NCBI GenBank assembly: GCA_964526375.1
Contig: CAZGLK010000001.1
Location: forward strand, 4,811-68,810
Reading direction: 5' to 3'
Length of the DNA stretch: 64,000 nucleotides
DNA from: an uncultured Candidatus Saccharibacteria bacterium
GTDB taxonomy: Bacteria > Patescibacteriota > Minisyncoccia > JACQLN01
Shown here: in pieces, positions 270 through 16,515 of the stretch
How positions within the stretch are numbered: position 1 is the first letter of the stretch
How the letters are laid out: each line of letters begins with the position of its first letter
Notes under the pieces: generated by a model
What the model was told of the DNA's origin: nothing
Seen by the model: only the letters and a program-made list of their open reading frames with translations
The model's database searches: none
Made by a program: the position numbers and the translations under genes

Positions 270-323
270 GCCGCTGACGAGTTTTTGGTAGTTTAGTAAA
301 AGGACAATAGACTGTTTATCTTT

Positions 324-545: not shown

Positions 546-995
546 ATGAGGCTCGATCAGGATATCAATTTTAATCTGGGAGGAGTGCCGATGGTGATGA
601 GACTTGATACCACGGCGCCAGAAAATGTGTGGATTATTACGCCGAAATGTCAAGAAGACATGGGAGACTCTTTCGCTAACGCCATTAAGAAATGCATCGG
701 CTTTCCTCATCAATTGTTCTCGTTTGGATTTGATGAGGCTGATGTCTACGTTGCTTTAGTGGCGGATGACCAGGCCGTTGTAATATATGGTGGAGATGAG
801 CCCGGTGCTTCTATGGCCTGTAACATTTTCGCCAGTTTGCCAGATTGGAGCGGCGAAAGTCTAAAGGGGCTCAGGGGAGCGGGAGAGTTTGTTGATTTTC
901 TCTCACTTCTTAAAGAGCATGCTGGAATCGAAGTATTTCGACGCAGCGATGGGGAGGTGATTGATTACACAAGCGCTCTTTTACTCTTACGATGA
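546..995 (+). CDS. hypothetical protein (149 aa)
   Basis: ORF with a GAGAGG Shine-Dalgarno 7-8 nt upstream of ATG; no family recognised. Confidence 0.5.
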   Translation: MRLDQDINFNLGGVPMVMRLDTTAPENVWIITPKCQEDMGDSFANAIKKCIGFPHQLFSFGFDEADVYVALVADDQAVVIYGGDEPGASMACNIFASLPDWSGESLKGLRGAGEFVDFLSLLKEHAGIEVFRRSDGEVIDYTSALLLLR

Positions 996-1109
996 GGAGC
1001 CCATTGAATTCTCTCAGATGTTTGATGATTTAGAGGATTCAAAGCTTTTTTGAATCCCATAAAGCCAAAACGGTCGTTAAAAAAATGAACAGCCTGACCA
1101 GCTGTTTTT

Positions 1110-1673: not shown

Positions 1674-1689
1674 AATGCGATGCCAATCA

Positions 1690-1779
1690 ACGAATGACAT
1701 GCGAATTATGCGAATAGAATCCATTCAAATCAAATAAAAAATTCGTATCATTCGCACGAATTCGCATATTAGCATCGCG
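1690..1779. promoter_or_regulatory. divergent efp/comEC intergenic region carrying an inverted array of ATGCGAAT / ATTCGCAT units
   Basis: atgcgaattatgcgaata … attcgcacgaattcgcat arranged as an imperfect palindrome around ~1731; the same CGAAT unit family recurs upstream of other genes. Confidence 0.3.
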
Positions 1780-1798
1780 TTGAGTATACTAAATACTA

Positions 1799-2947
1799 AT
1801 GAGCTTATCAAGGGCGGCGGTTATCGGCGCGGTGGCGTTTATGGCGGGCGTGGCGGTTTATTCCGTGGCTGGTTTGCAGTGGTGGCTGGTGAGCGCGCTC
1901 GTGGGCGCGGTGGCGGTTTTGGGTGTGGTAGGCGCTCGGGTTAATGTAAAATATCTCGCGCCCATTTTTGTTGTTGTTTTGTCTTTGCTGGCTGGGCTGG
2001 TTTGGGGGGCCGTTTATCGGCCTCAACCGAAGCAGGAAAAAACTTTTTGGCAGGATGCGCGGGCGGCGTTAACGGCCAAGGCAGATAAAATTATGCCCCA
2101 ACCCGAGGCCGCGGTTTTTGACGGCATGGTTTTGGGCTACGATAAAAACATCCCCGCTTCTTTGAAAGACATTTACAACATTACCGGCACGCGGCATATT
2201 CTGGCCATATCGGGCATGAACATTTCCATTGTGTCCTTAATGCTGATGAGTTTTGGTTTGGCTCTCGGTTTGTGGCGGCGTCAGGCTTTTTGGCTGGCGC
2301 TCGCGGGCATAATCGCTTTTGTTCTTTTGGTAGGCAGTCCGCCTTCAGCTGTTAGGGCCGGCTTGATGGCCGGCATAGTTTTGTGGGCCAGAAACCACGG
2401 TCGGCTGTTCTTAGCTTGGCGGCCGCTGGTATTGGCCGCATTTTTTATGGTCTTGTTGAATCCGCGCCTCTTGATTTTTGACATTGGGTTTCAGCTTTCT
2501 TTTTTGGCGGTGGCCGGCATTTTATATTTTAAGAACTTTTGGGATCATGTTTTCGGCTGGCTGCCCGTAAAACTTGCCCGTGAGTTATTGTCGCTTTCGT
2601 TTGCGGCCCAAATTACCACTTGGCCCATTATTCTTTACAACTTCGGCACCTTTTCACTGGTCGGCCCCATAGCCAATATCTTTGTGGTGCCGCTTTTAAA
2701 CCCCATAATGCTTTTGGGTTTAGGATTTGCGATTTTTTCATGGTGGCCGATATTGTCCCAGGTGTTTTTGTGGCCAGCTTGGCTTATCTTGAAATTAGCC
2801 GACAAAGCCGTGGAATTTTTTGCTACCTTCCCTTGGGCCAGTTTGAACTTGGGCCAGCCGGGTTTGATCGTGCTCGCTTATTATCCTTTCCTGTTGTGGC
2901 TGTGGAAGTTTTTAGAAAGAAAGGGCTTGAACGAGGCGGTGCATTGA
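1799..2947 (+). CDS. comEC: ComEC/Rec2 competence-domain membrane protein (N-terminal half of a split ComEC)
   Basis: Polytopic membrane protein with the ComEC competence-domain signature (NITGTRHILAISGMNISIVSLML). Confidence 0.8.
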   Translation: MSLSRAAVIGAVAFMAGVAVYSVAGLQWWLVSALVGAVAVLGVVGARVNVKYLAPIFVVVLSLLAGLVWGAVYRPQPKQEKTFWQDARAALTAKADKIMPQPEAAVFDGMVLGYDKNIPASLKDIYNITGTRHILAISGMNISIVSLMLMSFGLALGLWRRQAFWLALAGIIAFVLLVGSPPSAVRAGLMAGIVLWARNHGRLFLAWRPLVLAAFFMVLLNPRLLIFDIGFQLSFLAVAGILYFKNFWDHVFGWLPVKLARELLSLSFAAQITTWPIILYNFGTFSLVGPIANIFVVPLLNPIMLLGLGFAIFSWWPILSQVFLWPAWLILKLADKAVEFFATFPWASLNLGQPGLIVLAYYPFLLWLWKFLERKGLNEAVH

Positions 2948-2974
2948 TATCGAGGTTGTGTATCCAGTTCATAA

Positions 2975-3085
2975 ACCGACCCGAACAATCCGAATTTTAC
3001 CCGAATGACCCGAACCAATTCGGATGAGATATTCGTTAAGTTCGGATTATTTCGCGTCATTCGGATGTATTCGTGGTTAGGGATC
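2975..3085. repeat. phased CCGAA(T)/ATTCGG heptamer array between the two ComEC halves
   Basis: cccgaacaatccgaattttacccgaatgacccgaaccaattcgg followed by the inverted ttcggatg…ttcgttaagttcggatt…cattcggatgtattcg; unit spacing is ~9-11 bp. Confidence 0.4.
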
Positions 3086-3092
3086 GCGTTTT

Positions 3093-3911
3093 ATGTGGTT
3101 GTCTAAAAAATTTGTCTTGGGGGTTTTGGCGTTTATTTTAATCTTGATTTCTTATGCCGTTTGGCAGAAGGGGAACCAGTCGCCGCGGCTGGTGTTTTTG
3201 AATGTGGGGCAGGGCGATGCCATGCTGGCCAGTTTGCCCGGCGACATTCAAATTTTGGTGGACGCCGGGCCGTCGGGCGAGTTGGCTTCTAAACTTTCCG
3301 GCTATTTGCCTTTTTACGATCGCGATATTGAACTGGCAATTTTAACCCATCCCCACGCCGATCACCTGCGGGGTTTTTTGGAGATATTCAAAAATTACAA
3401 TGTTAAAAATTTTATCTTTTCGGGTGCCAATTATTCCAGCCGGGTTTATGCCGATTTTATGGAGGCGTTAAGAAAAGAGGGCAGCGGTGTTTACTTGGCC
3501 GGAAAAGGTGATGTTGTCAGTTATCGGGGCAGACCGATATTGAGAATTTTTTCTCCCGATAAGGTTGAACTTGGGCGTGATTTCAAAAAAATTCACGAGG
3601 CCAACATTGTTAGCCAGCTGGAACTGGGCCATAGAAAATTTTTGCTGATGGGCGATGCCGAAGAAGATCTTGAATTGCGGCTCATCGCGTCAAAGACGAT
3701 TCAAGACGTGGACATTCTAAAAGTCGGCCACCACGGTTCTAAAACCTCCACCTCGGAAAAATTGCTCCAAGCCGCTCGTCCCGAAGAAGCCATCATCTCC
3801 GTCGGCCGCAACTCCTACGGCCACCCCAACCCCGGTGTCCTGGATCGCCTGCATCAAACCGGAGCCAAAGTTTTTAGGACGGATCAGGTGGGGGATGTGG
3901 TTTATAGGTAG
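3093..3911 (+). CDS. comEC: ComEC C-terminal metallo-beta-lactamase domain protein (second half of split ComEC)
   Basis: N-terminal TM helix then MBL motifs LTHPHADHLRG and KVGHHGSKTS. Confidence 0.8.
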   Translation: MWLSKKFVLGVLAFILILISYAVWQKGNQSPRLVFLNVGQGDAMLASLPGDIQILVDAGPSGELASKLSGYLPFYDRDIELAILTHPHADHLRGFLEIFKNYNVKNFIFSGANYSSRVYADFMEALRKEGSGVYLAGKGDVVSYRGRPILRIFSPDKVELGRDFKKIHEANIVSQLELGHRKFLLMGDAEEDLELRLIASKTIQDVDILKVGHHGSKTSTSEKLLQAARPEEAIISVGRNSYGHPNPGVLDRLHQTGAKVFRTDQVGDVVYR

Positions 3912-3947
3912 AAGTTAGAATCTAGAAGTTAGAAAATAGAATATCTT

Positions 3948-4012
3948 TTGGAGACCGAATCTCCAAAAATTGTAATCCCGGAGTTTCTGTTTTGGAGACT
4001 TAGTCTCCAAAA
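3948..4012. repeat. 65-bp direct repeat R1 (copy 1) with two internal hairpins
   Basis: ttggagaccgaatctccaaaaattgtaatcccggagtttctgttttggagacttagtctccaaaa; identical to 4789-4853; contains hairpins GGAGAccgaaTCTCC and GGAGACttaGTCTCC. Confidence 0.7.
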
Positions 4013-4016
4013 TTGG

Positions 4017-4048
4017 GCTCCCGGTGAAAAACATCGGGGGCTTTTTTT
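4017..4048 (+). terminator. rho-independent terminator T1 (copy 1)
   Basis: gctCCCGGTGaaaaaCATCGGGGgcttttttt: 7-bp stem (one G·U), 5-nt loop, U-run; duplicated at 5831-5860. Confidence 0.6.
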
Positions 4049-4077
4049 ATTTTTGAAATTAAGCTAGGATAACAGCA

Positions 4078-4416
4078 ATGAGGTTGGAGCATCAATCAGC
4101 TGAAGAATTAAAAAAGGAAATCTTGGGAATTACGGGTAAATATCTTGATTTAACCAAGTACCGGCTTTTCTTTTTTGGCTCGCGGGTGGCGGGTGATGGT
4201 GATGAGCATTCCGATGTGGATGTGGGTATTGATGGCATTGAGCCACTCCCGCCCGGGGCTATTTCGAGTATTCAGCAGGAACTGGACGATTTGAATACAC
4301 TCTATAAGATACAGGCTGTTGATTTCCAAAAAGTCTCGGAGGATTTTCGCAGGGTTGCCCTGAGCAAGGTAGAGATAATCAATCAACAAGATGAGCAAGC
4401 TAACAGCGGTGATTAA
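4078..4416 (+). CDS. minimal nucleotidyltransferase (MNT) antitoxin-type protein
   Basis: Pol-beta-like NTase motif GSRVAG…SDVDVGI; its 3' end overlaps the downstream HEPN gene. Confidence 0.75.
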   Translation: MRLEHQSAEELKKEILGITGKYLDLTKYRLFFFGSRVAGDGDEHSDVDVGIDGIEPLPPGAISSIQQELDDLNTLYKIQAVDFQKVSEDFRRVALSKVEIINQQDEQANSGD

Positions 4417-4768
4417 ACAATTTGAACAGGCTCTAAGCCGCTTGGACGAGGTTTTGAAAGAACCCAAGACCGATATAGTTAGAGATTCGGCTATAAAGAG
4501 ATTTGAGATTGTTTTTGATCTGTCTTGGAAGGCGGTCAAGGTTTTTTTGGAAGAGAAGAAGGGCATAGTTTGCCGCTCTCCGAAGGAATGTTTTCGTTCG
4601 GCTTATCAGGAGAAGCTGTTGGAGTACGACAATTTCTGGCTGGAGCTGACTGATAGTAGAAACGACATTGTGCATGTATACGGTGAATCGGAGGCGGAGA
4701 AAGTTTATGGAATTTTGCCCGAAGCCCTGCTTAGATTTAAGGAGTTGTTGGGTGCTCTCAAATCGTAG
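4391..4768 (+). CDS. HEPN-domain (nucleotidyltransferase substrate-binding, HI0074-like) toxin-type protein
   Basis: About 125 aa and helical; the overlap (4391-4416) with the MNT gene is typical of MNT-HEPN toxin-antitoxin pairs. Confidence 0.7.
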   Translation: MSKLTAVIKQFEQALSRLDEVLKEPKTDIVRDSAIKRFEIVFDLSWKAVKVFLEEKKGIVCRSPKECFRSAYQEKLLEYDNFWLELTDSRNDIVHVYGESEAEKVYGILPEALLRFKELLGALKS

Positions 4769-4788
4769 GCGGATATTCCGGTCTCGAT

Positions 4789-4853
4789 TTGGAGACCGAA
4801 TCTCCAAAAATTGTAATCCCGGAGTTTCTGTTTTGGAGACTTAGTCTCCAAAA
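4789..4853. repeat. 65-bp direct repeat R1 (copy 2)
   Basis: Identical to 3948-4012 up to …tctccaaaa, then diverges. Confidence 0.7.
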
Positions 4854-4859
4854 ATATCG

Positions 4860-5825
4860 TTGTTATCTCGGCGATGTATCTAAGTCTGCCTAAGCTTAGT
4901 TTGGGAATGGAATAGCAATTGCTTTGGGTTAGGTTAGGTTAGACCAACAAGGTCGGGTGTTTATAACTTGTCCTTGCGCATTTTTTCAATTGGGTATAAG
5001 GTTAAAATAATGTAATGTGATGAAAGTTCTTTAAATTTTGTAGGATGCGTCTGCACTGCGTCCGCCATCCGGAGTTTCCGTGCCACGGAGCTACCGGGTA
5101 ATCAACGGGGTCGATTTTGGTACATCCAATTAAGGAGGTTACCATGTTAGCGCCGCGGAATCGTGGCCGACCTCTTCTGAACAGCTCTAATTCTGTTTCC
5201 GTTCAGGAGAGTTAAGCGTCGACTGCCGGGCGGGCGGGAAACAGCGCCAATGCTAACTGGGAGAATGAGATAAACCGGGGTTCGGGGTGTCGGCTGAGGG
5301 GAGAGGTTATCAGCGACAGCCAGGGGATGAAATTGCCGGCGAGGCAGTTCTTCAAAAAATATCTGCTTCGATGATCAATGTTGTCCGGCGGGCGCGCGTC
5401 TGCCGTGTCAGTAACGGGGAGATGCGCGTTCGCCATTTAGTCTCGCTCCGGAACTTAATCAAATCGCCCGCGCCAAAATTGGCAGCGACGAATTTTGAAA
5501 AAGCTCTGGCTTCAACCGCAAGTTGAGGGCATAATAAGGAGGATCCAAATATGATTGCCCACAACAATCCCGTGCACACGGCCACGCGCGCTTCTCCCTC
5601 TCCGATCACAGGGAACGCAAGTGGTCACAGCGCCGTCGGTCAGAATCAGAACAGCTCCTCGGAAAACTAGTCGGAGATGCGTTAAGGCATATCTGATTGT
5701 GGGCCGACAGCTATCAAAAAAGGTATGCGGCGCTAGAGTCGCGTTTTGTCTCGGTGCACTAAGGAGCGACCGAGCTCCAAAATGCGGCGGCTGACGCAAA
5801 TGTAAGCCATCGAGATTCAACCTCG
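4860..5825. other. GC-rich orphan segment without a long ORF (possible structured RNA, small-peptide locus or decayed foreign DNA)
   Basis: GC visibly higher than flanks; only short overlapping ORFs in all six frames. Two mini-ORFs have perfect AAGGAGG Shine-Dalgarno sequences (ATG 5144, 23 aa; ATG 5551, 39 aa). The segment is bracketed by repeat R1' and terminator copy T1'. Confidence 0.3.
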
Positions 5826-5830
5826 ATAGA

Positions 5831-5860
5831 GCTCCCGGTGAAAAACATCGGGGGCTTTTT
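5831..5860 (+). terminator. rho-independent terminator T1 (copy 2)
   Basis: gctcccggtgaaaaacatcgggggcttttt, identical to 4017-4046. Confidence 0.6.
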
Positions 5861-6104
5861 ATTTGTTATTTGTAGCAATATTGCAGAGTCTTCGGATATT
5901 TCTGTTTCAGGCGATCGCTGGAAATAGAAATATCTGCTGATAGCCGATAGATGTCGATAGATGCTGATGGATTTGGGTTAGAAGTACCTCTTTTTTTATT
6001 CCGGCAGATACGTTAGACTGACAAAACGCAAATTGACGCGGATGATGACCCTGCTTCGCTAGTCAGCTGCGCAGGACACGGCGCGGATTCGCGCGGATAA
6101 TAAT

Positions 6105-7175: not shown

Positions 7176-7255
7176 ATGGTCAGCTTCCCACATATGTGGA
7201 TAAATGGTTGTTGACTTTTTGATCTATGGTGCTACACCGAAAGCAAGATAAAAAA

Positions 7256-7284
7256 CCCCAGACTTCAAATCTGGGGCTTTTTAT
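7256..7284 (+). terminator. rho-independent terminator
   Basis: CCCCAGActtcaaaTCTGGGGcttttta directly after the adk-like gene. Confidence 0.7.
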
Positions 7285-7339
7285 GCTGGCTACGAAATAC
7301 GACGTAAAGTCGCGTGGCGACCACGTCGCTTTACGCGAA

Positions 7340-7378
7340 TTGTTACGAATATACGAATATGAAATCAAGTGGTATAAT
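7340..7378 (+). promoter_or_regulatory. candidate nth promoter: tandem TACGAAT units plus an extended -10 (TGgTATAAT)
   Basis: ttacgaatatacgaatatgaaatcaagTGgTATAAT, with the -10 at 7373-7378, 20 nt upstream of the nth ATG; the 18-mer tacgaatatacgaatatg recurs at 12576-12593. Confidence 0.4.
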
Positions 7379-7397
7379 TTTAAAAGAGGGAATTTGT

Positions 7398-8111
7398 ATG
7401 TCTAATGTTGTGGCAATAAATCCAAAACTCAAAATCCAAAATCCTAAGCAAATCCCAATGACCAAAATCCAAAACAAATCCCGCGGTGAGGGTTTAGAAG
7501 AGAAAAAGTCTCGGGCGAGCAAGGTTATTGCCTACTTAAAGAAAAAATTTCCCGGTGCCAAAATAGCCCTGAAGTACGGCAACCCAATCCAATTATTAGT
7601 GTCGGTTGTATTATCGGCTCAATGCACCGACAAAAAAGTCAACGAGGTTACGGCGGAGCTGTTTAAGAAATACAAAACAGGGGCTGATTTTGCCGAAGCG
7701 AACACAAAAAAATTTGAGCGGGAAGTAAAGCCCTGCGGGTTTTACCGCAATAAGGCCAAAAATATTATCGCCGCTTGTAAAATCATCCAAGACAAATTCA
7801 AAGGCAAACTGCCGCGAACGATGGCCGAGATGTTAACTTTGCCGGGCGTGGCCCGCAAAACCGCCAATGTGGTTTTGGGCAATGCCTTTGGTGTGGTGGA
7901 GGGGATTGCGGTGGATACGCACATGATCCGCATCAATCAGAAGCTTGGTTTTTCTACCAGTACCGACCCCAAAAAAATTGAGAGGGATCTTATGCAGATT
8001 ATTCCTAAAAAGGATTGGTTTAAATACACCTATTTAATAATTGACTACGGCCGCCAGGTTTGCCCGGCGCGGCATAAAAAATGTGAGTGCGGGATTTATA
8101 AAATTAAATAG
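7398..8111 (+). CDS. nth: endonuclease III (DNA glycosylase/AP lyase)
   Basis: HhH-GPD motifs LVSVVLSAQCTD and LPGVARKTANVV, DTHMIRI, and a C-terminal [4Fe-4S] cluster C-x6-C-x2-C-x5-C. The start is chosen at MSNVV with an AGAGGG RBS; the ORF-track start at 7314 lies inside the promoter repeats. Confidence 0.85.
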   Translation: MSNVVAINPKLKIQNPKQIPMTKIQNKSRGEGLEEKKSRASKVIAYLKKKFPGAKIALKYGNPIQLLVSVVLSAQCTDKKVNEVTAELFKKYKTGADFAEANTKKFEREVKPCGFYRNKAKNIIAACKIIQDKFKGKLPRTMAEMLTLPGVARKTANVVLGNAFGVVEGIAVDTHMIRINQKLGFSTSTDPKKIERDLMQIIPKKDWFKYTYLIIDYGRQVCPARHKKCECGIYKIK

Positions 8112-8127
8112 GATTCGTCTGATAACG

Positions 8128-8168
8128 CGATCCGAAAAATCCGAATACATCCGAATGACCCGAATAGA
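8128..8168. repeat. four phased direct repeats of (A/C)TCCGAA(T)
   Basis: atccgaaaa atccgaatac atccgaatg acccgaatag with ~10-bp periodicity, immediately 5' of / overlapping the next ORF start. Confidence 0.4.
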
Positions 8169-9294
8169 ATTCAAAAAATTGATGGCCATATTTTTGGTTT
8201 GCGTTTTGCTATTTGGTCTGGTCGGATTTGTGGAAGCAGGCAAAATTAAGGACATTAAAAAGCGCAGCCGCGCGTCTGTTTTTATTCCTCCGCAAAGCCG
8301 CCAAGAGATAATCCGGCCGGCTCGCAACGCCGTGTTTTTTAGTCCGCTGGAAACAATCATCACTTCGGGTCCGGCGAACAACAATTTTGTTCAAAGCACC
8401 AGTGTTGAGTTTGTTTTGGACGGCTGGCAGATAGTGCCTTTTAAAAAAACCAATCGTTTTGAGGTTTGGCTGTTTGGCCTGGACGCTGGCTGGCGCGAGG
8501 CCGGGGAGAGAATAAGCTATAACCTGCCGCCCGGCAAGCGGCTTTATACTTTTATGGCCCGGGCCAAAAACGAAGCCGGCGAGACGGATCGCACCGCCGC
8601 GGTTAGAAATTTTTATACTTTCACCTCGCCCTATTACGGCAAGATTGACATTACTGCCGTGGACGGCCGCGGTTCTTTTGACAAGCCGCAGTATGAGCGC
8701 GTCACTTTGTACGCTCGTAATCTGGCCGGCCCCGTTAATGTTAGCGGCTGGCGGCTGGCTACCCGCCGCAAGAGTTTTTCGTTTGCAATCCCTTCGGCGG
8801 CGCGGTTGTTTGATCCCGCCAATCTTATCGGCATAGAGCCGATCAAACTCTCGTCTGGAGATTCGCTGAATGTTTTTGTGGGCAAGGCAAGCCCGGTGGG
8901 AAGCGGTTTTCAGGAGAATGGCTGTATGGGCTATTTGCGGTCGGGTTTTGAAGGTTACGATGCTCTGGCCGGCGGCGGCAGTTGCTCGGCTGTCAGCCCT
9001 TCCGTGTATAGCAGTTACAGCGTTGACTGCCGCCGGTTCTTAAACGGCTTGAGCGCTTGCGCCAGCGTGAACTTGGAGCCGTGGCAATTCGGGGCCGATC
9101 CCGCTTGCCGTGATTTTATAGTTAGAAATTACAATTACGCCGCTTGCGTGGAGCGCGGCAAAAACCAAGCCAACTTTTTTACCGGCCGCTGGAGAATTTA
9201 TCTGGGCCAGAGCGATGAAATTCTGGATGATTTGGATGACACGGTTTATTTGTACGACGGGCAGGGGTTGTTGGTGGACATATACAGTTATTAG
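8155..9294 (+). CDS. secreted protein with a lamin-tail-like (LTD) segment and a Cys-rich C-terminus
   Basis: N-terminal signal/TM (MAIFLVCVLLFGLVGFVEA); YERVTLYARNLAGPVNVSGWRL resembles LTD; the start could also be 8182. Confidence 0.55.
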   Translation: MTRIEFKKLMAIFLVCVLLFGLVGFVEAGKIKDIKKRSRASVFIPPQSRQEIIRPARNAVFFSPLETIITSGPANNNFVQSTSVEFVLDGWQIVPFKKTNRFEVWLFGLDAGWREAGERISYNLPPGKRLYTFMARAKNEAGETDRTAAVRNFYTFTSPYYGKIDITAVDGRGSFDKPQYERVTLYARNLAGPVNVSGWRLATRRKSFSFAIPSAARLFDPANLIGIEPIKLSSGDSLNVFVGKASPVGSGFQENGCMGYLRSGFEGYDALAGGGSCSAVSPSVYSSYSVDCRRFLNGLSACASVNLEPWQFGADPACRDFIVRNYNYAACVERGKNQANFFTGRWRIYLGQSDEILDDLDDTVYLYDGQGLLVDIYSY

Positions 9295-9323
9295 TGAGTA
9301 GGGAGTAGGGGGGTAAAAATTAA

Positions 9324-9362
9324 AACAGCCGCTTCGTTTTTTGTGCGAAGGGCTGTTTTATG
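9324..9362. terminator. bidirectional hairpin terminator between convergent genes
   Basis: acagccgcttcg-ttttttgtg-cgaagggctgt with T-runs on both strands. Confidence 0.5.
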
Positions 9363-9557
9363 TTACGAGACCGTGGCCCCGAAACGGATGGTGGGGTTGC
9401 ATACGATTTCTTCTATGCATTTTGTGAATAAGTCTCCTAGGGTATCGGGGTGAAAGTCTTCATGGTGGATTAGATCTCTGATCTTGTCTGGTGTCATTAG
9501 GTCGGGAGGCGGCCTTTGACCCATTAGTTTTTCCCAAGCCTGTTCAATGGGAGTCAT
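9363..9557 (-). CDS. small hypothetical protein (64 aa), paralog of 9873-10151
   Basis: Shared pattern AW..M.G..PPP……HP……C..EI with the neighbouring ORF; GC-richer than the backbone. Confidence 0.45.
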   Translation of the reverse strand: MTPIEQAWEKLMGQRPPPDLMTPDKIRDLIHHEDFHPDTLGDLFTKCIEEIVCNPTIRFGATVS

Positions 9558-9708
9558 AAAATATCACCACCTTTGTGTTGAAAGAACTTGGTTCTATTTT
9601 CTCACGGCGGTTGCAGCGGCGCAAGTGTATAAACTACGGCACCGCCCAATTTTTACAGCCAAAGTATTCCGAGGGGGCAGGTCAAACATGTAGCAACTCA
9701 TTTCATTG

Positions 9709-9754
9709 TATTGTTTCCTCTTCCCAGACGATCGTCTGTGGGATGGAAACAATA
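9709..9754. repeat. 46-nt stem-loop repeat, copy C
   Basis: 10-bp stem TATTGTTTCC/GGAAACAATA and a 26-nt loop with AGACGATCGTC; same architecture as copies A and B. Confidence 0.6.
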
Positions 9755-9872
9755 TCAAAGTCGCTTACAAATCATCGCTGGAAGAAATTTTTAGCGGGAT
9801 TCTTGCAAAGGAACAAATAAAAATCCGCCCCGATGCGCGCATCGGGGCGGGGGAGGAGGGAAGGAACTTGCT

Positions 9873-10151
9873 TTAGATGGACTCCAGCACTGGACCATCT
9901 AGAAAAGAACTCGCCGGGGTGTGTTCCAGAAACTGGTTACCGGCCCAGATTTGTATCTCCTCCGAGTCGTAGGTGTCGGGATCGTTCCGAATCTCATCCA
10001 CACAGGCTCGGAAGGTTGCCAGCCCTATAATACGAGGATGAAAACTCGGATCACCGATCAGGATTTTGGCAATAACCTGCGCCCGGGCCGGTGGTGGCCC
10101 GTCGCCATTCATTGCCTGCCAAGCCGCGTAAAACGGGTGGTTCTGGTCCAT
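9873..10151 (-). CDS. small hypothetical protein (92 aa), paralog of 9363-9557
   Basis: See its paralog; GC-rich; immediately downstream of murD on the same strand. Confidence 0.45.
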   Translation of the reverse strand: MDQNHPFYAAWQAMNGDGPPPARAQVIAKILIGDPSFHPRIIGLATFRACVDEIRNDPDTYDSEEIQIWAGNQFLEHTPASSFLDGPVLESI

Positions 10152-10153
10152 TT

Positions 10154-11530
10154 TTATTCTCCTTTCAAAATTGATTTTACGAGAAGATTAAATTGTTTTC
10201 CGCGGTCAAATTCGTTTTTGAACTTTTCAAACGAAGCCGCGGAGGGCGAAAAAAGAACCAGGGTCGATTTGACAATCTTGGCATACCTAATGGCGCTTGT
10301 CAATAAAGGGGGCAGGGTAGGGTAGAGTTGGGGCTGGGAGTTCTTAAAGTATTTCTGACGGTCAAGCGCCGCGATCATTTTGTTTGTGGCTGAACCTTCC
10401 AGCAAAAACAAGTTTTCTTTTTTTACGAATTTTTTTACGGCGGCGGCCCAGTCGTCAAAAATCAAATTTTTGTCCGTGCCGCCGGTTATCAGTATCAAGT
10501 TTCTGGCCTGTGCGTGGAATCGTTTTAAGGCGGCCATGGTAGCGTCGGGTGAAGTGGCCACCGCGTCGTTTACTATAGTCAGTCCACCCCCACGGTAGAT
10601 AATTTCCTGGCGGAATTTTATCTGGGGCAGGGTTTTAATGGCTTTCTTTATCGTTGCCCAGCTTAGGCCGGCTAGATTGGCGGCTAGCGCCGCGAGCATT
10701 AAGTTTTGCAGGTTATGGTTACCAAAGGGTGGCAAATGGGGAAAACGGGATGAAAAAGGGAAAGGCACGAATAAGATTTGGCCAGGCGGTTTTTGCTTAA
10801 GAAAAAATTTGGTCCATTTGTCTCCCCTGTTCAGAATCAAGAAATCATTCTTGGTTTGGTGCTTAAAGATGTTGGCCTTGGCTAGGGCGTAGTCGGTTAG
10901 GTTTTTATAACGATTTAGGTGGTCGGGTAAAATATTTGTTATCAGGGCTATATGGGGTTTTTTGTTCCAAGCTAAGCTTGGAACATTTAGGAGTTCAAGA
11001 TGCCAGCTGGAAAGTTCCACCACCACTGGGCTTTTGCCGTCCAATTTGTCCAACGCTTTTAGCATGGGGTTGTCCGAAGAATTTCCAGCCAGCGCGGCGT
11101 CCGGAAATTTTTGTTTCAGCAGGTGATAGGTCCAATTAGCCGTGGTGGTTTTGCCTCGGGTGCCGGTGACGCCGATGATTGGATTTTTGCAAAACCTAAA
11201 AAACAAACTGGCTTCGTTTTCCAATTGGGCGCCGCTCTGGCGCGCGGTTTTCAAATACGGGCTTTCTCGGGGCACGGCTGGGTTTACGACCACGATATCG
11301 TGAGACCGAAAGTCGGAGGCCAGATGTCGGCCTAAAACAAACCGGATTCGTTGGGCGGTTTGCCCTAAAGCTTTTATTGAGGCAGCCAGTTCGCGTCGCG
11401 GTTTTAGGTCAGTCACGGTAACTTTAGCTCCATGTTTAACCAGCCATTTGGTAGCGGCCACTCCCCCGCCCAAAAGCCCCAAACCCATCACCAGAACTTT
11501 TTTGTTTTTTAGGTAATCCTCCGGTGTCAT
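10154..11530 (-). CDS. murD: UDP-N-acetylmuramoylalanine--D-glutamate ligase
   Basis: KVLVMGLGLLGGG Rossmann N-terminus, Mur ligase P-loop IIGVTGTRGKTTT, about 458 aa. Confidence 0.9.
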   Translation of the reverse strand: MTPEDYLKNKKVLVMGLGLLGGGVAATKWLVKHGAKVTVTDLKPRRELAASIKALGQTAQRIRFVLGRHLASDFRSHDIVVVNPAVPRESPYLKTARQSGAQLENEASLFFRFCKNPIIGVTGTRGKTTTANWTYHLLKQKFPDAALAGNSSDNPMLKALDKLDGKSPVVVELSSWHLELLNVPSLAWNKKPHIALITNILPDHLNRYKNLTDYALAKANIFKHQTKNDFLILNRGDKWTKFFLKQKPPGQILFVPFPFSSRFPHLPPFGNHNLQNLMLAALAANLAGLSWATIKKAIKTLPQIKFRQEIIYRGGGLTIVNDAVATSPDATMAALKRFHAQARNLILITGGTDKNLIFDDWAAAVKKFVKKENLFLLEGSATNKMIAALDRQKYFKNSQPQLYPTLPPLLTSAIRYAKIVKSTLVLFSPSAASFEKFKNEFDRGKQFNLLVKSILKGE

Positions 11531-11560
11531 GGATTTAATCGTAACCGCAGGAGGGGGACT

Positions 11561-11589
11561 TTGACAAGCGTTAGCTAAAGCGATAGCAT
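11561..11589 (+). promoter_or_regulatory. sigma70-like promoter candidate
   Basis: TTGACA-17 nt-TAGCAT followed by RBS GGAAGGAGG and ATG 11627. Confidence 0.4.
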
Positions 11590-11626
11590 TTCAAAAATGT
11601 TCTTTTTGGGAAGGAGGTGAAGCATT

Positions 11627-11812
11627 ATGTCCGGGCTTTGTGATCCCGCCGATCGCTATCCGATACAAGAAGCACCAATAGGTATCCGGGAACAGATACT
11701 GGACCTTTGGGAGCAACTTGTTAAGGAACTGCCGGTGGAAGGCAGGCGTTGGTTGATTTTTGAGTTACACAAAATTGACCCCGAGCCGTTTTCGCAATGG
11801 TTTGGCAAATAA
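11627..11812 (+). CDS. small hypothetical protein (61 aa)
   Basis: Strong RBS GGAAGGAGGTG; no family recognised. Confidence 0.4.
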   Translation: MSGLCDPADRYPIQEAPIGIREQILDLWEQLVKELPVEGRRWLIFELHKIDPEPFSQWFGK

Positions 11813-11827
11813 GAGGAGGCGCCGGGT

Positions 11828-12082
11828 ATGTCAAAAAAGATATTGCTGCGAGACACCGGAGTCTATATTGTTGGGATGGCGGTTTTGATTCTGGCGATAT
11901 TTGGGCTTTTCTGGCTGTCCCAAACAATGTGGGCGAGTTTTGGGTCTGTTTGGGTTCTCTTGGCTATGGGCGGCATCGCGCTGGAAGGTTTGGTTATTGC
12001 CGCGAGTGTCATCTTGCTTAGTGTGTGGTACGGTTTTGGCTGGAGGGAATTCATTCATCTACATCTAGCGCGGCGAGGTTAA
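11828..12082 (+). CDS. small membrane protein (84 aa, 2-3 TM helices)
   Basis: RBS AGGAGG, hydrophobic helices. Confidence 0.5.
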   Translation: MSKKILLRDTGVYIVGMAVLILAIFGLFWLSQTMWASFGSVWVLLAMGGIALEGLVIAASVILLSVWYGFGWREFIHLHLARRG

Positions 12083-12098
12083 ACCTTACCCCAAAAAA

Positions 12099-12126
12099 GC
12101 GGCTTGTAACCACAGGCCGTTTTTTA
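12099..12126. terminator. hairpin terminator between the + operon and tRNA-His
   Basis: GGCTTGTaaccACAGGCC followed by GTTTTTT. Confidence 0.5.
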
Positions 12127-12134
12127 TAAAAAGG

Positions 12135-12206
12135 GGTGGGTAAGGGGAATCGAACCCCCCTCACCGCTGCCACAGAGCGGCGCTTTACCACTAAGCTATA
12201 CCCACC
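12135..12206 (-). tRNA. tRNA-His (anticodon GTG)
   Basis: Hand-folded cloverleaf: G-1 GTGGGTA acceptor, D-stem GCTT/AAGC, anticodon stem CCGCT/AGCGG with loop CTGTGGC, T-arm GGGGG-TTCGATT-CCCCT, discriminator C. Confidence 0.8.
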
Positions 12207-12299
12207 ATAAAAGCTCTACAGCTTATGGCTAATAGCTTATAGTTTTTTTGGGGAAAATTCAAATTAATGGGTCCAATAGGACCGATAGGCCTGATAAAA

Positions 12300-12548
12300 C
12301 TATTCCTCGGCCTTTAACACCGACGCGCCTTCGCGGGCTTTCTCGGTTACTTTTAAGCCGACAACATCGCCGGCCACGGCTAGGCTGACGCTTTTGCGGT
12401 CTACCTCCATAGATTCCACGGTTTGTTCAAACTCGTTTTTGCCGCCTTCAATTTTTATGCGGTCGCCCACTTTTAAATCGCCGGTCAGTTCCACAATGGC
12501 CACGCCCAGTTTGCCGTAGTAATGGGTAATTTTGCCGATGGGTTTCAT
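12300..12548 (-). CDS. small beta-barrel protein (82 aa), EF-Tu domain-2-like
   Basis: …GKLGVAIVELTGDLKVGDRIKIEG… pattern; sits between two tRNA genes. Confidence 0.5.
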   Translation of the reverse strand: MKPIGKITHYYGKLGVAIVELTGDLKVGDRIKIEGGKNEFEQTVESMEVDRKSVSLAVAGDVVGLKVTEKAREGASVLKAEE

Positions 12549-12619
12549 AGGGTAACGAATTTACGAATTGATTACGAATATACGAATATGTTTCCAAGGT
12601 CGACCTTTGGGAGTTTTCG

Positions 12620-12628
12620 TGGTAATAT
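12620..12628 (+). promoter_or_regulatory. extended -10 (TGgTAATAT) for the tRNA-Arg transcript, downstream of TACGAAT repeats
   Basis: Preceded by aacgaatttacgaattgattacgaatatacgaatatg (12557-12593); a 14-bp tandem repeat gacaag(a/c)gacatgg x2 (12636-12663) lies in the leader. Confidence 0.35.
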
Positions 12629-12674
12629 GTCTGGTGACAAGAGACATGGGACAAGCGACATGGAAAAATTGACC

Positions 12675-12746
12675 GCCCCAGTAGTTCAATGGACAGAACA
12701 GGACTCTTCTAAGGTCTAGATGGGGGTTCGATTCCCTCCTGGGGCG
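12675..12746 (+). tRNA. tRNA-Arg (anticodon TCT)
   Basis: Hand-folded: acceptor GCCCCAG/CTGGGGC, D-stem GTTC/GAAC, anticodon stem GGACT/GGTCT (two G·U) with loop CTTCTAA, T-arm GGGGG-TTCGATT-CCCTC; 72 nt. Confidence 0.8.
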
Positions 12747-12787
12747 CATATAAAAACCAAATCTCAAATCTAAAAAATCCGCAAGCG

Positions 12788-12816
12788 TTGACACAGCTTT
12801 TTGGGTTTGGTAAGAT
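12788..12816 (+). promoter_or_regulatory. sigma70-like promoter candidate for clpB
   Basis: TTGACA-17 nt-TAAGAT. Confidence 0.4.
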
Positions 12817-12818
12817 TA

Positions 12819-12845
12819 TTATCACTCTATAGAGCCAAGTGATAA
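12819..12845. promoter_or_regulatory. CIRCE-like inverted repeat (candidate HrcA operator) between promoter and clpB start
   Basis: TTATCACTC-N9-AAGTGATAA versus the CIRCE consensus TTAGCACTC-N9-GAGTGCTAA (3 mismatches, a perfect 9-bp IR). Confidence 0.4.
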
Positions 12846-12878
12846 TGGGTTCTATAAGTCCTATAAGACCAATATTAC

Positions 12879-15497
12879 ATGAATTTCGGAAATTTTACCA
12901 CCCGGGCCCAGGAGGCTTTTCAAAAGGCCCACTATATTGCCCAAGAAAAAAGCAGTGAGCAGGTCAACTGCCTGCATTTGCTTTTGGCGTTATTGCGCCA
13001 AGACGACGGTTTGGTAGCCACCATCTTAAAAAAGATGGAGGCCGATGTGGGCCGACTGGACGCGGCTTTGGAACTGGAAATCAACCGACTCCCCCGTTTG
13101 GTTGGCGGCGGCGGGGTGGCCCAGATTTTTTTGGGTCAGGATTTGGCTTTAGTGATTGAGCAGGCCCAAAAAGAAGCCATGGGTTTTAAGGACGAATATG
13201 TTTCCACCGAACACTTGCTTTTGGCGGTGCTGGCCGTGCCGTCGCGGGCGCGGCAAATTTTGGAAGAAATGGGAGTCGGCGCCGAGAATGTTCTTAAAGT
13301 GCTTAAAGATGTTCGTGGCAGTGGGCGGGTAACATCTTCTGAACCCGAGCAAACCTATCAGGCCCTGCAAAAATACGGACGCAACTTAACCGATTTAGCC
13401 CGACGCGAAAAGCTGGATCCGGTGATCGGCCGCGATTCCGAAATTCGCCGAGTGATGCAGGTTTTGTCGAGGCGCACCAAAAACAATCCGGTTTTGATAG
13501 GCGAAGCCGGTGTGGGCAAAACGGCCATTGTGGAGGGCTTGGCCCAGCGCATTGTGGCCGGCGATGTGCCCGAAGGTTTGCTTAACAAAGAGATCGTGGC
13601 TTTGGATATCGGCTCGCTGGTGGCTGGCACCAAGTTTAGGGGCGAGTTTGAGGAGCGGCTTAAAGCCATATTAAAAGAAATAGACCGCGCCGAAGGGCGG
13701 ATGGTTTTGTTTATAGACGAACTTCATACTCTGGTGGGCGCCGGCGGCGCTGAGGGCGCGGTGGACGCCTCCAATTTGCTTAAACCTCCCCTAGCCCGGG
13801 GCGAATTGCATGCCATTGGCGCTACCACTCTAAAGGAATATCAAAAATACATAGAAAAGGACCCGGCCTTTGAACGAAGATTCCAGCCGATTTTAGTAAG
13901 TGAGCCCTCGGAAAAAGATGCCGTGGCCATTTTGCGCGGCATTAAAGAAAAATACGAGGTTCACCACGGCGTTAGAATCACCGATGCCGCCATTGTGGCG
14001 GCGGTGGAGCTTTCCCAACGCTACATATCCGATCGCTTTTTGCCCGACAAGGCCGTGGACTTAATAGACGAAGCCACCTCGGCTTTGAGAATGGAAATAG
14101 ATTCCATGCCCGACGAGCTGGATGTGCTTTCGCGCGAAATCAGGCGGCTTGAAATTGAACGTGAGGCCCTAAAAAAAGAAAAAGAGGCCGCCGACAAATT
14201 AAAAAAGATCAAACACAATCTGGCCGACATAAAAGAAAAATATCAGGCCTTGGAAGCGCAATGGCAGGGCGAGAAAAGTTTGATTACCAAAATGCGCGAA
14301 ACCCAAAAAGAGGTTGAGCGTTTGCGCAGCGAGGCCGAGATTGCCGAGCGCGAGGGCCGCCTGGAGCGGGTGGCCGAAATCCGCTACGGCCTTATACCCT
14401 CTTTGGAAAAAACCATTGGCGAGTGTTCGGAGAAACTGGGCCATTTGGAAAAGTCGCATCGCCTGTTAAAAGAAGAAGTTGGCGCCGACGACATTGCCGA
14501 AGTAGTCAGCCGCTGGACGGGCATTCCCGTAAGCCGTCTGCTGGAAGAAGAATCCAAAAAACTGGCTCGCATGGAGCAGGAATTGTCGCAGAGAGTGGTG
14601 GGCCAGATGAAAGCGGTGCAGGCGGTTGCCAATGCCATCCGCCGCGCCCGCACCGGTTTGGGCGAGGAATCGCGGCCGATCGGTTCGTTTGTGTTTTTGG
14701 GCCCCAGCGGCGTGGGCAAAACGGAATTGGCGCGGGCTTTGGCCGAGTTTATGTTTAACGACGAGAACGCGCTTATTAGGGTGGATATGTCGGAATACAT
14801 GGAGCGGCATTCCGTAAGCCGTATGATCGGTTCTCCGCCCGGCTATGTGGGCCACGAGGAGGGTGGCCAACTGACCGAACTGGTGCGCCGCCGGCCCTAC
14901 AGCGTGGTGCTTTTTGACGAAATAGAAAAAGCTCACCCCGAAGTGTTTAATTTACTGCTTCAGGTTTTGGACGACGGCCACCTAACCGACGCCAAAGGCC
15001 GCCGCGTCAACTTTAAGAACGCCATTATTATTATGACCTCTAACCTCGGCACCGAGATTATCCACGAATACCACGGTTTGGGTTTTGCCCACGACGACGG
15101 CAAGCGCCAAGAGGCCCAAGCCCGTGAAGCCGAAGATAAAATAATGGAAATCCTGCGGCGGAACTTTAGGCCCGAATTTTTGAACCGCTTGGATGAAATT
15201 ATTGTTTTTAACCAGCTAAGAAAAAGCGATCTGGAAAAGATTGTGGAATTGCAATTGGAAAAAGTTAAAGAGCGCCTGGCCAAAAAGGGCATTAAACTGC
15301 GCGTCTCGCCCGAACTAAAGGCTTATTTGGTTAAGAAGGGTTTTGATCCGGTCTACGGCGCCCGGCCGCTCAAGCGGGCGATTCAGGATTTGGTTTTGAA
15401 TCCTTTGGCCCAGCGCCTTTTGCAAAAACAGCCCGCCCCTGTGGCAGAACAGATTTTTAAGGCCGACTTCAGCCGGGGGGAAGTTCTCATTAAATAG
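12879..15497 (+). CDS. clpB: ATP-dependent chaperone ClpB
   Basis: Clp N-domain, two AAA+ modules ([30 protein letters not shown]) and a long middle coiled-coil; 872 aa. Confidence 0.95.
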
Positions 15498-15628
15498 CTT
15501 CCTTAGCTTGTTAGAAAAAATTCTCTGACCTAAAAAGCCAATGAAGCTAATAAGCTAACGAAGCTTTAGAATAATCCACAGCTTGGCTGTTGGAGGTGGC
15601 GGTTTTTTGTGATATTGTAGGTGGAGAT

Positions 15629-15793
15629 GGTTACAAAACTCTCTCTGCTGCAATTTCATATTTTCGGCTGCGACTTCGTCAGACTGCGCAAAAAGGTTTT
15701 CACCGTAGTTTTACTACGGCTTCAAACCTTTTTGCTTGCCTTCCTCGTCTCGCCAGAAAATATGAAATTTCGCCACGAAAGAGTTTTGTAACC
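15629..15793. repeat. 165-bp imperfect palindrome (arms ~70 bp) in the long intergenic region after clpB
   Basis: Outer blocks GGTTACAAAACTCT / AGAGTTTTGTAACC are perfect. Inner blocks are aatttcatattttc / gaaaatatgaaatt and caaaaaggttt / aaacctttttg, with a central small IR ccgtagt…actacgg. Confidence 0.5.
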
Positions 15794-16515
15794 ATCTCGT
15801 AAATAGTTTTTGCCGGGTTTCTTTATGCTGGTGTTTATCCACAACCCTGCCCTTGCTCTAGGTTGGCTTGTGGTATAATTGCTGTAAAGAGTTTTGACCT
15901 GTGTATAAACCATGTCTCTTGTGATGGGTTGACGGGTCTTGTTGACTTGTGAAATGCGCTAGCATATCATTTGGTCTAAGGAAGATCTATCAGCTCGCGT
16001 ACGGAGTGTGAGTGTTAAACCAAGCGGTTCGCAGGCAATATATGATTGTTTCCCAAACAAAGATATTTTGAAGGCCTTTTGCAACGGCTCTTTTGTGATT
16101 TACGAAATACGAATTGGTACGCCTGCCTGCGGTAGGCAGGAATCTACGAAAATTAAAGATGTGGACAGATGAGTTTGCGCGAGGATTGATTTGAGATTAG
16201 GACTCGTGTATGCTCATATGTTCATGTCCGGTGTAGTTTTCCAGCAAGCTCGCACCTTGACAATTGAATATCCTGTAAGTCTCGAATCTTGAATCTTGGA
16301 TCTTGGATCGTGAATATTGGATCATGGGGTGCGATTCAAGAAGTGCGAATAGTGATTTTAGTGGAGTGTCTTAAGTCGGGTCGGTCTCTTTAGGAGGAAG
16401 ACTTGACCTCCGATTGAATGCGATTATTAAAATTAGCAACTAACTTTGCGGGTTGATAGCAACCAAGGGATCGCAAGATACCTGGGCTGCCTTCAGCCAA
16501 AAACGAGAAAAACAA

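Follow-up and report, generated by a model that had tools for sequence, protein, structure and literature searches.

What are the strings of short CGAAT-type repeats that lie in front of several genes of an uncultured Candidatus Saccharibacteria bacterium, and do they do anything there? They occur in a stretch of 64,000 nucleotides of its DNA (GenBank assembly GCA_964526375.1, contig CAZGLK010000001.1, positions 4,811 to 68,810), hereafter the window, in which a first-pass annotation had named six sites and proposed an array of binding sites for a global regulator. To our knowledge, almost nothing is known of transcription control in the candidate phyla radiation (CPR)/Patescibacteria, since these bacteria are uncultivated and encode few recognisable regulators, and a search of the literature on repeats and promoter motifs in CPR/Parcubacteria returned nothing relevant. 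The repeats of the window belong to a cis-element family, arrays of 3-10 copies of ATNCGAAT about 9-10 bases apart, that is real, conserved in its clade and previously undescribed, and that is not new in kind. Judged from the DNA, we hold with about even confidence that they are operator-like cis-regulatory arrays for a putative oligomerising DNA-binding protein.

A mechanical scan for CGAA/TTCG cores on the same strand and 7-13 bp apart recovered the repeats at all six sites. With an array defined as at least three such cores, the window contains 7 arrays, where 200 dinucleotide-preserving shuffles gave a mean of 0.68 (maximum 3), and 4 arrays of at least four cores, where 0.03 were expected. 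An even spread over coding and non-coding DNA, with no counterpart at orthologous promoters, would have spoken against the annotation's proposal. Instead, all 7 arrays are confined to the non-coding DNA, which sums up to 6.3 kb (9.8%) of the window, most of them are found 6-90 bp from a gene start, and they are present at orthologous promoters. The density of CGAAT/ATTCG is 5.24/kb in non-coding DNA against 1.11/kb in coding DNA (4.7-fold). All arrays fall within the first 16 kb, because the window from ~20 kb onward is a tightly packed glycan-biosynthesis cluster with few promoters.

An assembly artefact was ruled out by three independent assemblies. Two Logan assemblies from separate sequencing runs, L087 and L088, are 100% identical to positions 1-3908 and 249-3099 of the window with the arrays included, and since they match base for base, the first two array sites are not artefacts. 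The ClpB of the window is encoded exactly on the NCBI contig JACQLP010000020 (GCA_016204085.1), which differs from positions 7390-25497 by 6 single-nucleotide polymorphisms (SNPs) and no gaps; no SNP lies inside any array, and the array copy number is unchanged from 8.1 kb on. A hyper-variable contingency locus was also rejected for the window population, as the three assemblies of the organism show no difference in copy number. Two kinds of origin were considered and dropped as well. Iterons of replication origins are 17-22-bp repeats beside a rep gene and an AT-rich unwinding element at a single locus; here the units are of 8 bp, at six loci in 16 kb, with no rep gene and a monotonic GC skew. 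For a viral origin, the 118 DNA stretches that match a 15-mer are at chance level by rough estimate, and two unrelated 8-bp satellites matched too.

The unit was characterised from 68 units of 10 genomes. Its consensus is a-T-[A/G/C]-C-G-A-A-T, with the information confined to ATNCGAAT, and positions that were not used in detection are conserved as well: +1 is T in 57/68, -2 is T in 42/68 and -3 is A in 46/68. The sequence between units carries ~0 bits, and the length of the spacers varies, also within one array. The word is one base from the palindrome ATTCGAAT, and the base that would complete it is rare (3/68). The spacing between units had been given as 8-11 bp; measured, it ranges from 7 to 13 bp, is most often 9-10 bp and averages 9.5 bp. 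Pairs of adjacent spacings sum to 19-20 in 19/30 cases, with the peak there and not at 21, and the resulting short-long-short pattern (8,11,8; 9,10,9; 9,11,9), slightly under two helical turns, looks like pairs of pairs. A strict form of the helical-turn phasing that had been proposed is not supported, given this mean, these paired sums and a distance from the nth array to its -10 element that shifts by about half a turn between species.

A period of roughly one helical turn (mode 9-10 bp) could also point to intrinsic DNA-structure or RNA-polymerase-contact elements, UP-like or curved, that need no dedicated regulator, and the arrays upstream of nth do occupy about -22 to -55, in front of extended -10 promoters without a -35 element. 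UP elements are A/T-rich tracts at -40 to -60 that are contacted by the alpha C-terminal domain. The conserved word here is centred on C/G instead of forming an A/T tract, a row of four units with a mean spacing of 9.5 bp loses the helical phase, and the distance to the -10 ranges from 5 to ~39 bp with half-turn shifts between orthologs. Moreover, both orientations occur, also 6 nt from an ATG, and the position of the array varies from abutting the ATG to ~-90. The UP-like elements that the annotation had offered do not fit this C/G-centred core and this variable position, and we judge such an explanation very improbable. The word itself might instead mark clusters of candidate DNA methyltransferase targets that are read by a methylation-sensitive binder, much as SeqA targets (GATC) are clustered, roughly phased short sites; CGAAT is the HinfIII type III restriction-modification site, and CCGAA is a Haemophilus ModA site. 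In the logo, however, positions -3 and -2 outside CGAAT carry information too, and this idea has hardly any probability in our view.

Are the arrays kept in other genomes? Relatives were gathered, through protein homology or synteny, by EF-P, by ComEC and by the 82-aa protein, the product of a small EF-Tu-domain-2-like gene of the window. Because they were chosen by protein and not by motif, their loci and contigs (coded L001, L082, L231 and so on, with L098/L231 treated as one entry) are unbiased for the motif. With the window excluded and 2000 shuffles as the null, the DNA upstream of the 82-aa gene contains ATTCG 25 times in 14 loci against 3.3 expected, a number reached in 0/2000 shuffles, and its opposite strand is not enriched. 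Upstream of nth, CGAAT was counted 8 times against 1.27 expected (0/2000), and in the efp|comEC spacer both strands are enriched, with 6 and 7 occurrences against ~1.6 expected (ATTCG reached in 0/2000 and CGAAT in 9/2000 shuffles). The motif count was 0 in the eight outgroup loci of this test. Strict CGAAT arrays number 16 in 240 kb of clade DNA and 0 in 1.09 Mb from 78 unrelated EF-P loci.

The best-conserved site is the 82-aa gene, which has arrays of 3-4 units in 9 genomes (the window, L089, L090, L094, L095, L096, L098/L231, L106 and L229), 2 units in L230 and 1 in L097. These arrays always read ATTCG in the gene sense and are positioned between a conserved AAAGGTCGA box and the ATG; the box is kept even in outgroups without arrays. 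The arrays upstream of nth read CGAAT in the gene sense (window, L082, L098/L231 and L229) and are located just upstream of a conserved extended -10, TGGTATAAT or TGATAAGAT, which places them in untranscribed promoter DNA. Convergent CGAAT arrays are found at efp|comEC in the window, L082 and L231. Because L231 keeps arrays at all three orthologous loci, with a ComEC 56% and an 82-aa protein 68% identical to those of the window, absence from orthologous promoters does not occur.

Between species, the flanks are unalignable and the spacers differ in sequence and length, while the cores persist. Between the window and L082, the efp|comEC spacer is 86% identical (aligned columns) against ~81% for neighbouring coding DNA, and the differences in it are indels of whole units. 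The strains L082 and L083, which belong to the sister species, are 99.7% identical, with 7 SNPs and one indel in 5.5 kb; 4/7 SNPs lie within ~30 bp of the nth array, in spacers or flanks, and so does the sole indel, an 8-bp loss of a degenerate unit (TTATGAAT) that left the three intact CGAAT cores untouched. Conserved cores with free spacers are the pattern expected of binding subsites and not of decaying slippage products.

Part of these data would also suit non-adaptive repeat DNA, that is, slippage-generated or self-copying short repeats whose effects on expression are incidental. The clade is rich in repeat families of 7-9 bp (87 array regions, 55 of them intergenic), and the window alone has 35 short-repeat arrays of at least 4 copies against 0.2 expected. 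CGAAT arrays give way to other families at orthologous spots, near-identical copies recur within a single genome together with their flanks, one cassette is situated between convergent gene ends, and the array region of L082/L083 is a hotspot of strain variation. However, neutral repeats should not keep 3-4 intact cores of 5-8 nt at the same site and on the same strand from species to species amid unalignable flanks, and slippage homogenises whole units, whereas here the cores are invariant and the spacers differ within an array. The efp|comEC spacer is, in addition, better conserved than the coding DNA beside it. We consider the non-adaptive explanation unlikely, though one to be taken seriously. 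A related alternative in the first-pass annotation, that the motif is one more of the heptamer families of this genome, stands in so far as other intergenic families of 7-9 bp occur and sometimes take the place of CGAAT arrays; it fails in that the CGAAT arrays, with variable spacers and conservation across species, are unlike the perfect heptamer runs inside open reading frames (ORFs). Tandem Repeats Finder (TRF) gave 76-88% matches with indels for the CGAAT arrays against 89-100% and a period of exactly 7 for the in-ORF heptamers. The arrays are not simple tandem repeats of constant-period, near-identical units, since their spacers vary in both length and sequence.

The arrays fall into cassette families of ~33-45 bp. 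The type-A cassette, ACGCGAyGCyAATAT-[R]CGAAT-kCAT-GCGAAT-gAy-RCGAAT, is found at efp and comEC (window, L082 and L231) and at the 82-aa gene (L089, L094 and L090, in part L097); L089 has it a second time, at 8084-8106, where RNR and a small ORF end convergently. An alignment of 12 rows shows the full cassette in the window, L082, L089 and L231. The type-B cassette, TTTACGAAATACGAATTrrTACGAATATACGAAT, is present at the 82-aa gene in L095, L098/L231, L229 and the window and at nth in L098/L231, L229 and the window, and L098/L231 holds the composite twice. Half copies of type B in the window (7292 and 16099) are each broken by a small hairpin, and the two hairpins differ. Copies within a genome are closer to each other than to their orthologs, which argues for cassette copying or gene conversion; L094, for example, has GCGAAT units and L098 ACGAAT units, though the proteins are 88% identical. 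Whole units would be gained and lost by slippage, and cassettes would be copied or gene-converted between intergenic sites, which may account for the extra copies specific to the window at comEC|MBL (metallo-beta-lactamase), nth|LTD and 16.1 kb.

Putative mobile promoters are a comparison case of dispersed intergenic sequences (Matus-Garcia et al. 2012, PMC3488235). The arrays share with them, and with repetitive extragenic palindromes and bacterial interspersed mosaic elements (REP/BIME), that a near-identical short intergenic sequence lies upstream of non-homologous genes in one genome: an 18-mer twice in the window, the composite twice in L098/L231 and type A twice in L089. In REP/BIME and miniature inverted-repeat transposable elements (MITE), a palindromic unit or terminal inverted repeats go with a linked transposase (RAYT) or a target-site duplication; here, hairpins form in the convergent double arrays only. 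The cassettes differ from all of these in being ~33-45 bp long, internally repetitive and conserved at orthologous positions across species, no target-site duplication is evident at the arrays, and they are not known to be linked to a transposase or RAYT. Most likely, the arrays serve a regulator as operators and are at the same time copied about as cassettes. They would then be an example of the turnover of regulatory DNA in reduced genomes, where units come and go, cassettes are copied between promoters and one family can replace another at one site.

An array of regulator binding sites, as had been proposed, is the best-supported reading of conserved cores and diverging spacers, with a protein that is itself predicted. 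It is favoured because the 8-bp subsite is near-palindromic, the spacing paired at 7-11 bp, the layout direct and inverted and the number of units elastic, and because the arrays lie over or just upstream of predicted core promoters without a canonical -35. According to a promoter scan, the canonical promoters of this genome are TTGACA-17-TAGCAT or TAAGAT, unlike which the array-associated promoters rely on an extended -10. From this pattern we infer that a protein binds, of what kind it may be and in which direction it might regulate. A string of 8-bp near-palindromic subsites (A-T-N-C-G-A-A-T), 7-11 bp apart, would be coated cooperatively by a small sequence-specific oligomerising protein, and a ribbon-helix-helix (RHH)-type or similar protein best fits the geometry. 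With predicted core promoters under or just downstream of the arrays, binding would co-regulate a small conserved set of genes, namely the 82-aa gene next to tRNA-Arg, nth and efp/comEC, and repression by occlusion would be most likely where the array abuts the start codon. A global scope for the regulator, part of the original proposal, is not supported by the ~4 conserved target loci seen.

Which known systems does this resemble? MraZ boxes and response-regulator repeats consist of 3-4 direct repeats of a 5-7-bp word in a promoter, with a period of ~10-11 bp; here the word is another, up to 10 units and inverted pairs occur, and there is no tie to the dcw cluster. The boxes of LexA (Cheo box), ArgR, CRP-S, CtsR, NrdR and DnaA were rejected, being inverted repeats or having another word or another spacing. 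The omega heptads on pSM19035 and the MetJ metboxes are RHH operator arrays. At parH of TP228, the RHH protein ParG cooperatively coats short boxes with variable AT-rich spacers, an example of an established mechanism (PMC3130281). The arrays resemble these three systems in their short subsites (4-8 bp) in direct or inverted order, 7-11 bp from centre to centre, with variable AT-rich spacers and elastic order and number, probably also in their place at promoters, and the logo and spacings of the 68 units, with direct and convergent arrangements, agree with RHH subsites. They differ in having chromosomal housekeeping targets in a CPR bacterium, in their looser spacing (7-13 bp) and in their spread as cassettes to several loci.

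Several observations weigh against the operator reading. No DNA-binding Pfam match, and no candidate regulator, was found among the small neighbouring ORFs. The cassette at 8084-8106 of L089 lies between two convergent gene ends and not at a promoter, the distance to the -10 of nth differs by ~5 bp between species, and the target genes have no obvious common function. The array of the 82-aa gene abuts the ATG with no recognisable -10 after it, and it may be transcribed. Other words are found at the same spot, AGCTAAT in L091 (with an 82-aa protein 93% identical), GTAGT in L084/L229 and TCCNAAT in L001/L230/L090, and there is nothing at the orthologous spot in L002, L092, L099 and L100. The 82-aa protein was rejected as its own regulator, as it is an EF-Tu-domain-2/U32-C-type beta-barrel, annotated as translation-factor-like and not known as a DNA-binding fold; its family is widespread. 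With the element (ATNCGAAT in arrays), a small conserved target set and the clade in which the element is present or absent now defined, a regulator should be findable by phylogenetic profiling, which makes the element a practical way into gene regulation in CPR.

Two architectures can be told apart in the window: one-directional arrays of 3-4 units, whose single strands are unstructured (z > 0), and convergent double arrays, which make long quasi-palindromes at efp|comEC (3+3) and comEC|MBL (4+6). The first of these lies between efp (1110-1673, minus strand) and the ORF of the ComEC competence domain (1799-2947). The efp-side type-A cassette (1676-1720, plus strand, cores at 1691, 1702 and 1711) consists of GCGATGCCAATCA, ACGAAT (1690-1695), GCGAAT (1701-1706), GCGAAT (1710-1715) and AGAAT, and is 37/38 identical in the ortholog L082. 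The comEC-side type-A cassette is inverted (1741-1778, minus strand, cores at 1742, 1751 and 1761), with the units ATTCGT (1741), ATTCGC (1750) and ATTCGC (1760) and then ATAT-TAGCAT-CGC (TAGCAT at 1770-1775). Together they fold on the minus strand with z = -2.8, and the promoter scan proposes TTCGCA-18-TATACT at 1761-1790 beside comEC. The second, in the 145-bp spacer between comEC and a metallo-beta-lactamase (MBL) ORF separate from ComEC (3093-3911), has four CCGAA(T/C) units (2981-3015, plus strand, cores at 2982, 2991, 3002 and 3011) facing six inverted TTCGG/TTCGT/TTCGC units (3018-3075, minus strand, cores at 3019, 3032, 3041, 3051, 3060 and 3070), after which come TAGGGATCGCG and the MBL start. 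For the complete element (2975-3085), the folding energy is -38 kcal/mol (z = -3.1). L084 has three CCCGAA units in this position; the comEC and MBL ORFs overlap or almost touch in L085, L001, L002, L089, L090, L229 and L231, with no spacer for an array.

Such folds (z = -3.1 and -2.8) would suit a role at the RNA level, in which the arrays are transcribed in 5' leaders or inter-cistronic spacers and bind a translational regulator or form stabilising or terminating hairpins. The array of the 82-aa gene ends 6-20 nt before the ATG and leaves no room for a -10; in L089, L090, L095 and L230 it lies between co-oriented tRNA-Arg and 82-aa gene; and the strand of the arrays is fixed per locus. Strong Shine-Dalgarno sequences, moreover, precede only 9/53 genes of the window. 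An analogue is offered by the TAACTGA direct repeats of Beggiatoaceae, Cyanobacteria and Bacteroidetes, for which a role in RNA has been proposed in Beggiatoaceae (MacGregor 2015, PMC4679880). They too come in groups of 2-6 short direct repeats between genes. TAACTGA-type repeats stand a few nucleotides ahead of start codons, where ribosome-binding sites are rare, and the arrays of the 82-aa, LTD, MBL and efp genes are near an ATG without Shine-Dalgarno, but TAACTGA units are contiguous and of 7 bp, whereas here the units are not contiguous heptamers, the spacers are variable, both orientations and convergent pairs occur, and the nth arrays lie upstream of the -10. The nth array, being upstream of a conserved extended -10, should indeed be untranscribed, one and the same genome has the composite in opposite orientations, relative to the gene, at nth and at the 82-aa gene, unidirectional arrays are unstructured, and the lack of Shine-Dalgarno is genome-wide and not specific to array genes. 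We think an RNA-level role improbable overall, though plausible for the 82-aa gene, whose array may be co-transcribed with tRNA-Arg. Shine-Dalgarno substitution was rejected as a specific role for the arrays, as 44/53 genes have no strong Shine-Dalgarno. As side observations, -10-like hexamers lie 6-12 nt before many gene starts of the window, which suggests that leaderless or Shine-Dalgarno-independent initiation is widespread there, and an Rfam 15 scan of the window (gathering threshold and E <= 0.05) gave two tRNAs only and no match at the arrays.

Upstream of nth (7398-8111), the window has first the left half of a type-B composite, TACGAAATACGAC (7292-7306, plus strand, core at 7293 and a degenerate CGAC at 7300), which matches the intact composite upstream of nth in L098/L231 and L229. 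The composite is split by the 40-bp palindrome CGACGTAAAGTCGCGTGGCGACCACGTCGCTTTACGCG (7299-7338), a hairpin in the fold of 7286-7365; this palindrome is 100% identical upstream of nth in L230 (~13180-13220, reverse complement), although the 82-aa protein of L230 is only 74% identical to that of the window. The array itself, GCGAAT + ACGAAT + ACGAAT (7335-7361, plus strand, cores at 7336, 7346 and 7354), ends 11 bp before the TG of the extended -10 TGGTATAAT (7370-7378). It includes the 18-mer TACGAATATACGAATATG, of which the first-pass annotation had reported two identical copies; both exist, at 7344-7361 and 12573-12590 and not at 7350-7367 and 12576-12593. Of the two extended -10 elements that had been reported, TGGTATAAT and TGGTAATAT (12620-12628), the second is one mismatch off TATAAT.

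The 70-bp spacer between nth and the gene of an LTD-domain protein (8182-9294) is filled by four (A/C)(T/C)CCGAA(T) units (8131-8166, plus strand, cores at 8133, 8142, 8152 and 8161), the last of which passes into TAGAAT, 11 nt ahead of the ATG (8182). This array was found in the window only; L082 has TCGCAAA heptamers there, and the genes overlap in L089 and L090. A murD-like gene and then tRNA-His lie between the LTD gene and the 82-aa gene (12300-12548, minus strand). The type-B array between the latter and tRNA-Arg (12675-12747) has four ACGAAT units (12554-12590, plus strand, cores at 12556, 12564, 12575 and 12583) with a spacing of 8, 11 and 8, holds the second copy of the 18-mer, is located upstream of tRNA-Arg and begins at a distance of 6 nt from the 82-aa start codon; the AAAGGTCGA box (12600-12608, minus strand) is upstream of it in the 82-aa gene sense. 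The last site, ~330 bp in front of the gene of a 1294-aa protein, is a half type-B composite, TTTACGAAATACGAATTGGTACG (16099-16121, plus strand, cores at 16103 and 16110), that matches the nth-upstream composite of L231 in 23/23 positions; a small GC hairpin (16122-16141) and then a single ACGAA (16146) come after it.

The neighbourhood of comEC, nth and LTD recalls competence. In streptococci, the SigX box TACGAATA has the natural variants TgCGAATA, TcCGAATA and aACGAATA (PMC6001120). Strikingly, the arrays share with this SigX (ComX) box the word T-N-CGAAT-A, including the variable second base, and lie beside comEC. They could then be -10-type boxes of an alternative sigma factor of the SigH/ComX (SigX) family that mark a regulon of DNA uptake and repair, since in the window they flank both ComEC ORFs, nth and the LTD gene, and they point to the gene at nth, LTD and tRNA-Arg, as do the distal arrays of comEC, efp and MBL. 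The streptococcal box, however, is a single copy at the -10 with a T-tract, whereas here 3-10 copies stand in tandem with no upstream T-tract, and A is not preferred at position +2 (A 22, T 26, G 17). The orientation is inconsistent with the best-conserved target, as in all 9 genomes the boxes are directed away from the 82-aa gene, and in L089, L090, L095 and L230 they run antisense into tRNA-Arg. In addition, comEC has no CGAAT arrays in L089, L084 and L229, and no sigma gene was seen in the window. Boxes of this kind are decidedly improbable. As a long shot, T-N-CGAAT might still be the element of a CPR competence-type regulator, perhaps a SigH/ComX-like sigma, perhaps a transcription factor that adopted the same word. 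Host-dependent CPR bacteria are thought to live on DNA import, and if the conjecture were true, the arrays at both ComEC ORFs, nth and LTD would mark a regulated DNA-uptake and repair regulon and give the first cis-regulatory handle on the control of DNA import in these bacteria.

Further non-coding features were noted near the arrays. Perfect DnaA-box nonamers TTATCCACA occur at 7196-7204 (minus strand) and 15839-15847, and the former is kept in L082 in a non-coding block of 82% identity with a TTGACT hexamer and the adk terminator. Five relatives have a conserved non-coding block of ~250 nt upstream of nth that is absent from the window (L231 14650-14900, L229 5150-5400 and L230 13200-13450, all reverse complement; L089 13700-13900; L090 14760-14900); Rfam gave no match to it at E <= 0.05, and it could be a structured RNA that has not been described before. 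Further upstream, an MNT/HEPN toxin-antitoxin pair (4078-4768) stands between the two copies of a ~70-bp direct repeat (3944-4012 and 4786-4854), and a terminator hairpin occurs twice, at 4015-4043 and 5828-5858. As relatives are without the block (in L082, MBL to adk is ~520 bp), it looks like an insertion with duplicated flanks. The 1.3-kb stretch from 4769 to 6104 has no ORF and no Rfam match. The 955-bp non-coding stretch at 15498-16452, upstream of the gene of the 1294-aa peptidoglycan (PG)-binding protein, has no Rfam match; a long inverted repeat lies in it at ~15624-15798, and heptamers of the TCTTGAA type at 16280-16327.

Other repeat families are found as well. At least 7 genomes have arrays of a (T)AAGCTn heptamer, 3-4 units long, in the gap between the 82-aa stop codon and tRNA-His (window 12206-12245, L091 541, L094 361, L096 5222, L097 409, L090 19777 and L229 ~920); they are a second repeat family conserved at an orthologous position, and TAAGCT resembles a -10 hexamer. 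Inside the frames of three adjacent GT4 glycosyltransferase genes, near-perfect tandem heptamers with the units CCAATTT, CCAAGCT, CCCTATA/CCCTAAA, AATTACC, ATTGAAA and ACTACTC leave the frames intact (21936-22122, 22546-22598, 23189-23224, 23344-23370, 23861-23916, 23996-24027, 24252-24285 and 24526-24551). Because 7 nt is not a multiple of 3, their copy numbers must be selected to keep the frame; one of the 6 SNPs between the window and JACQLP010000020 lies inside such a run (23196). Arrays of a 10-12-bp ACGCGGAT are found in the same GT4 genes at 24436-24474 and 25061-25100. Its word GCGGAT, which makes the arrays at 24436 and 25061, also occurs three times (6044-6100; GACGCGGATGA...GGCGCGGATTCGCGCGGATAATAAT-ATG) just upstream of the adk-like gene, which is located between the MNT/HEPN pair and nth. 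Finally, clpB, the gene after tRNA-Arg, is preceded by a canonical promoter, TTGACA-17-TAAGAT, and after this promoter by an inverted repeat of the CIRCE kind, TTATCACTC-N9-AAGTGATAA (12788-12846); similar repeats lie upstream of clpB in L089, L090 and L230, and the one in the window is probably an HrcA-type heat-shock operator.

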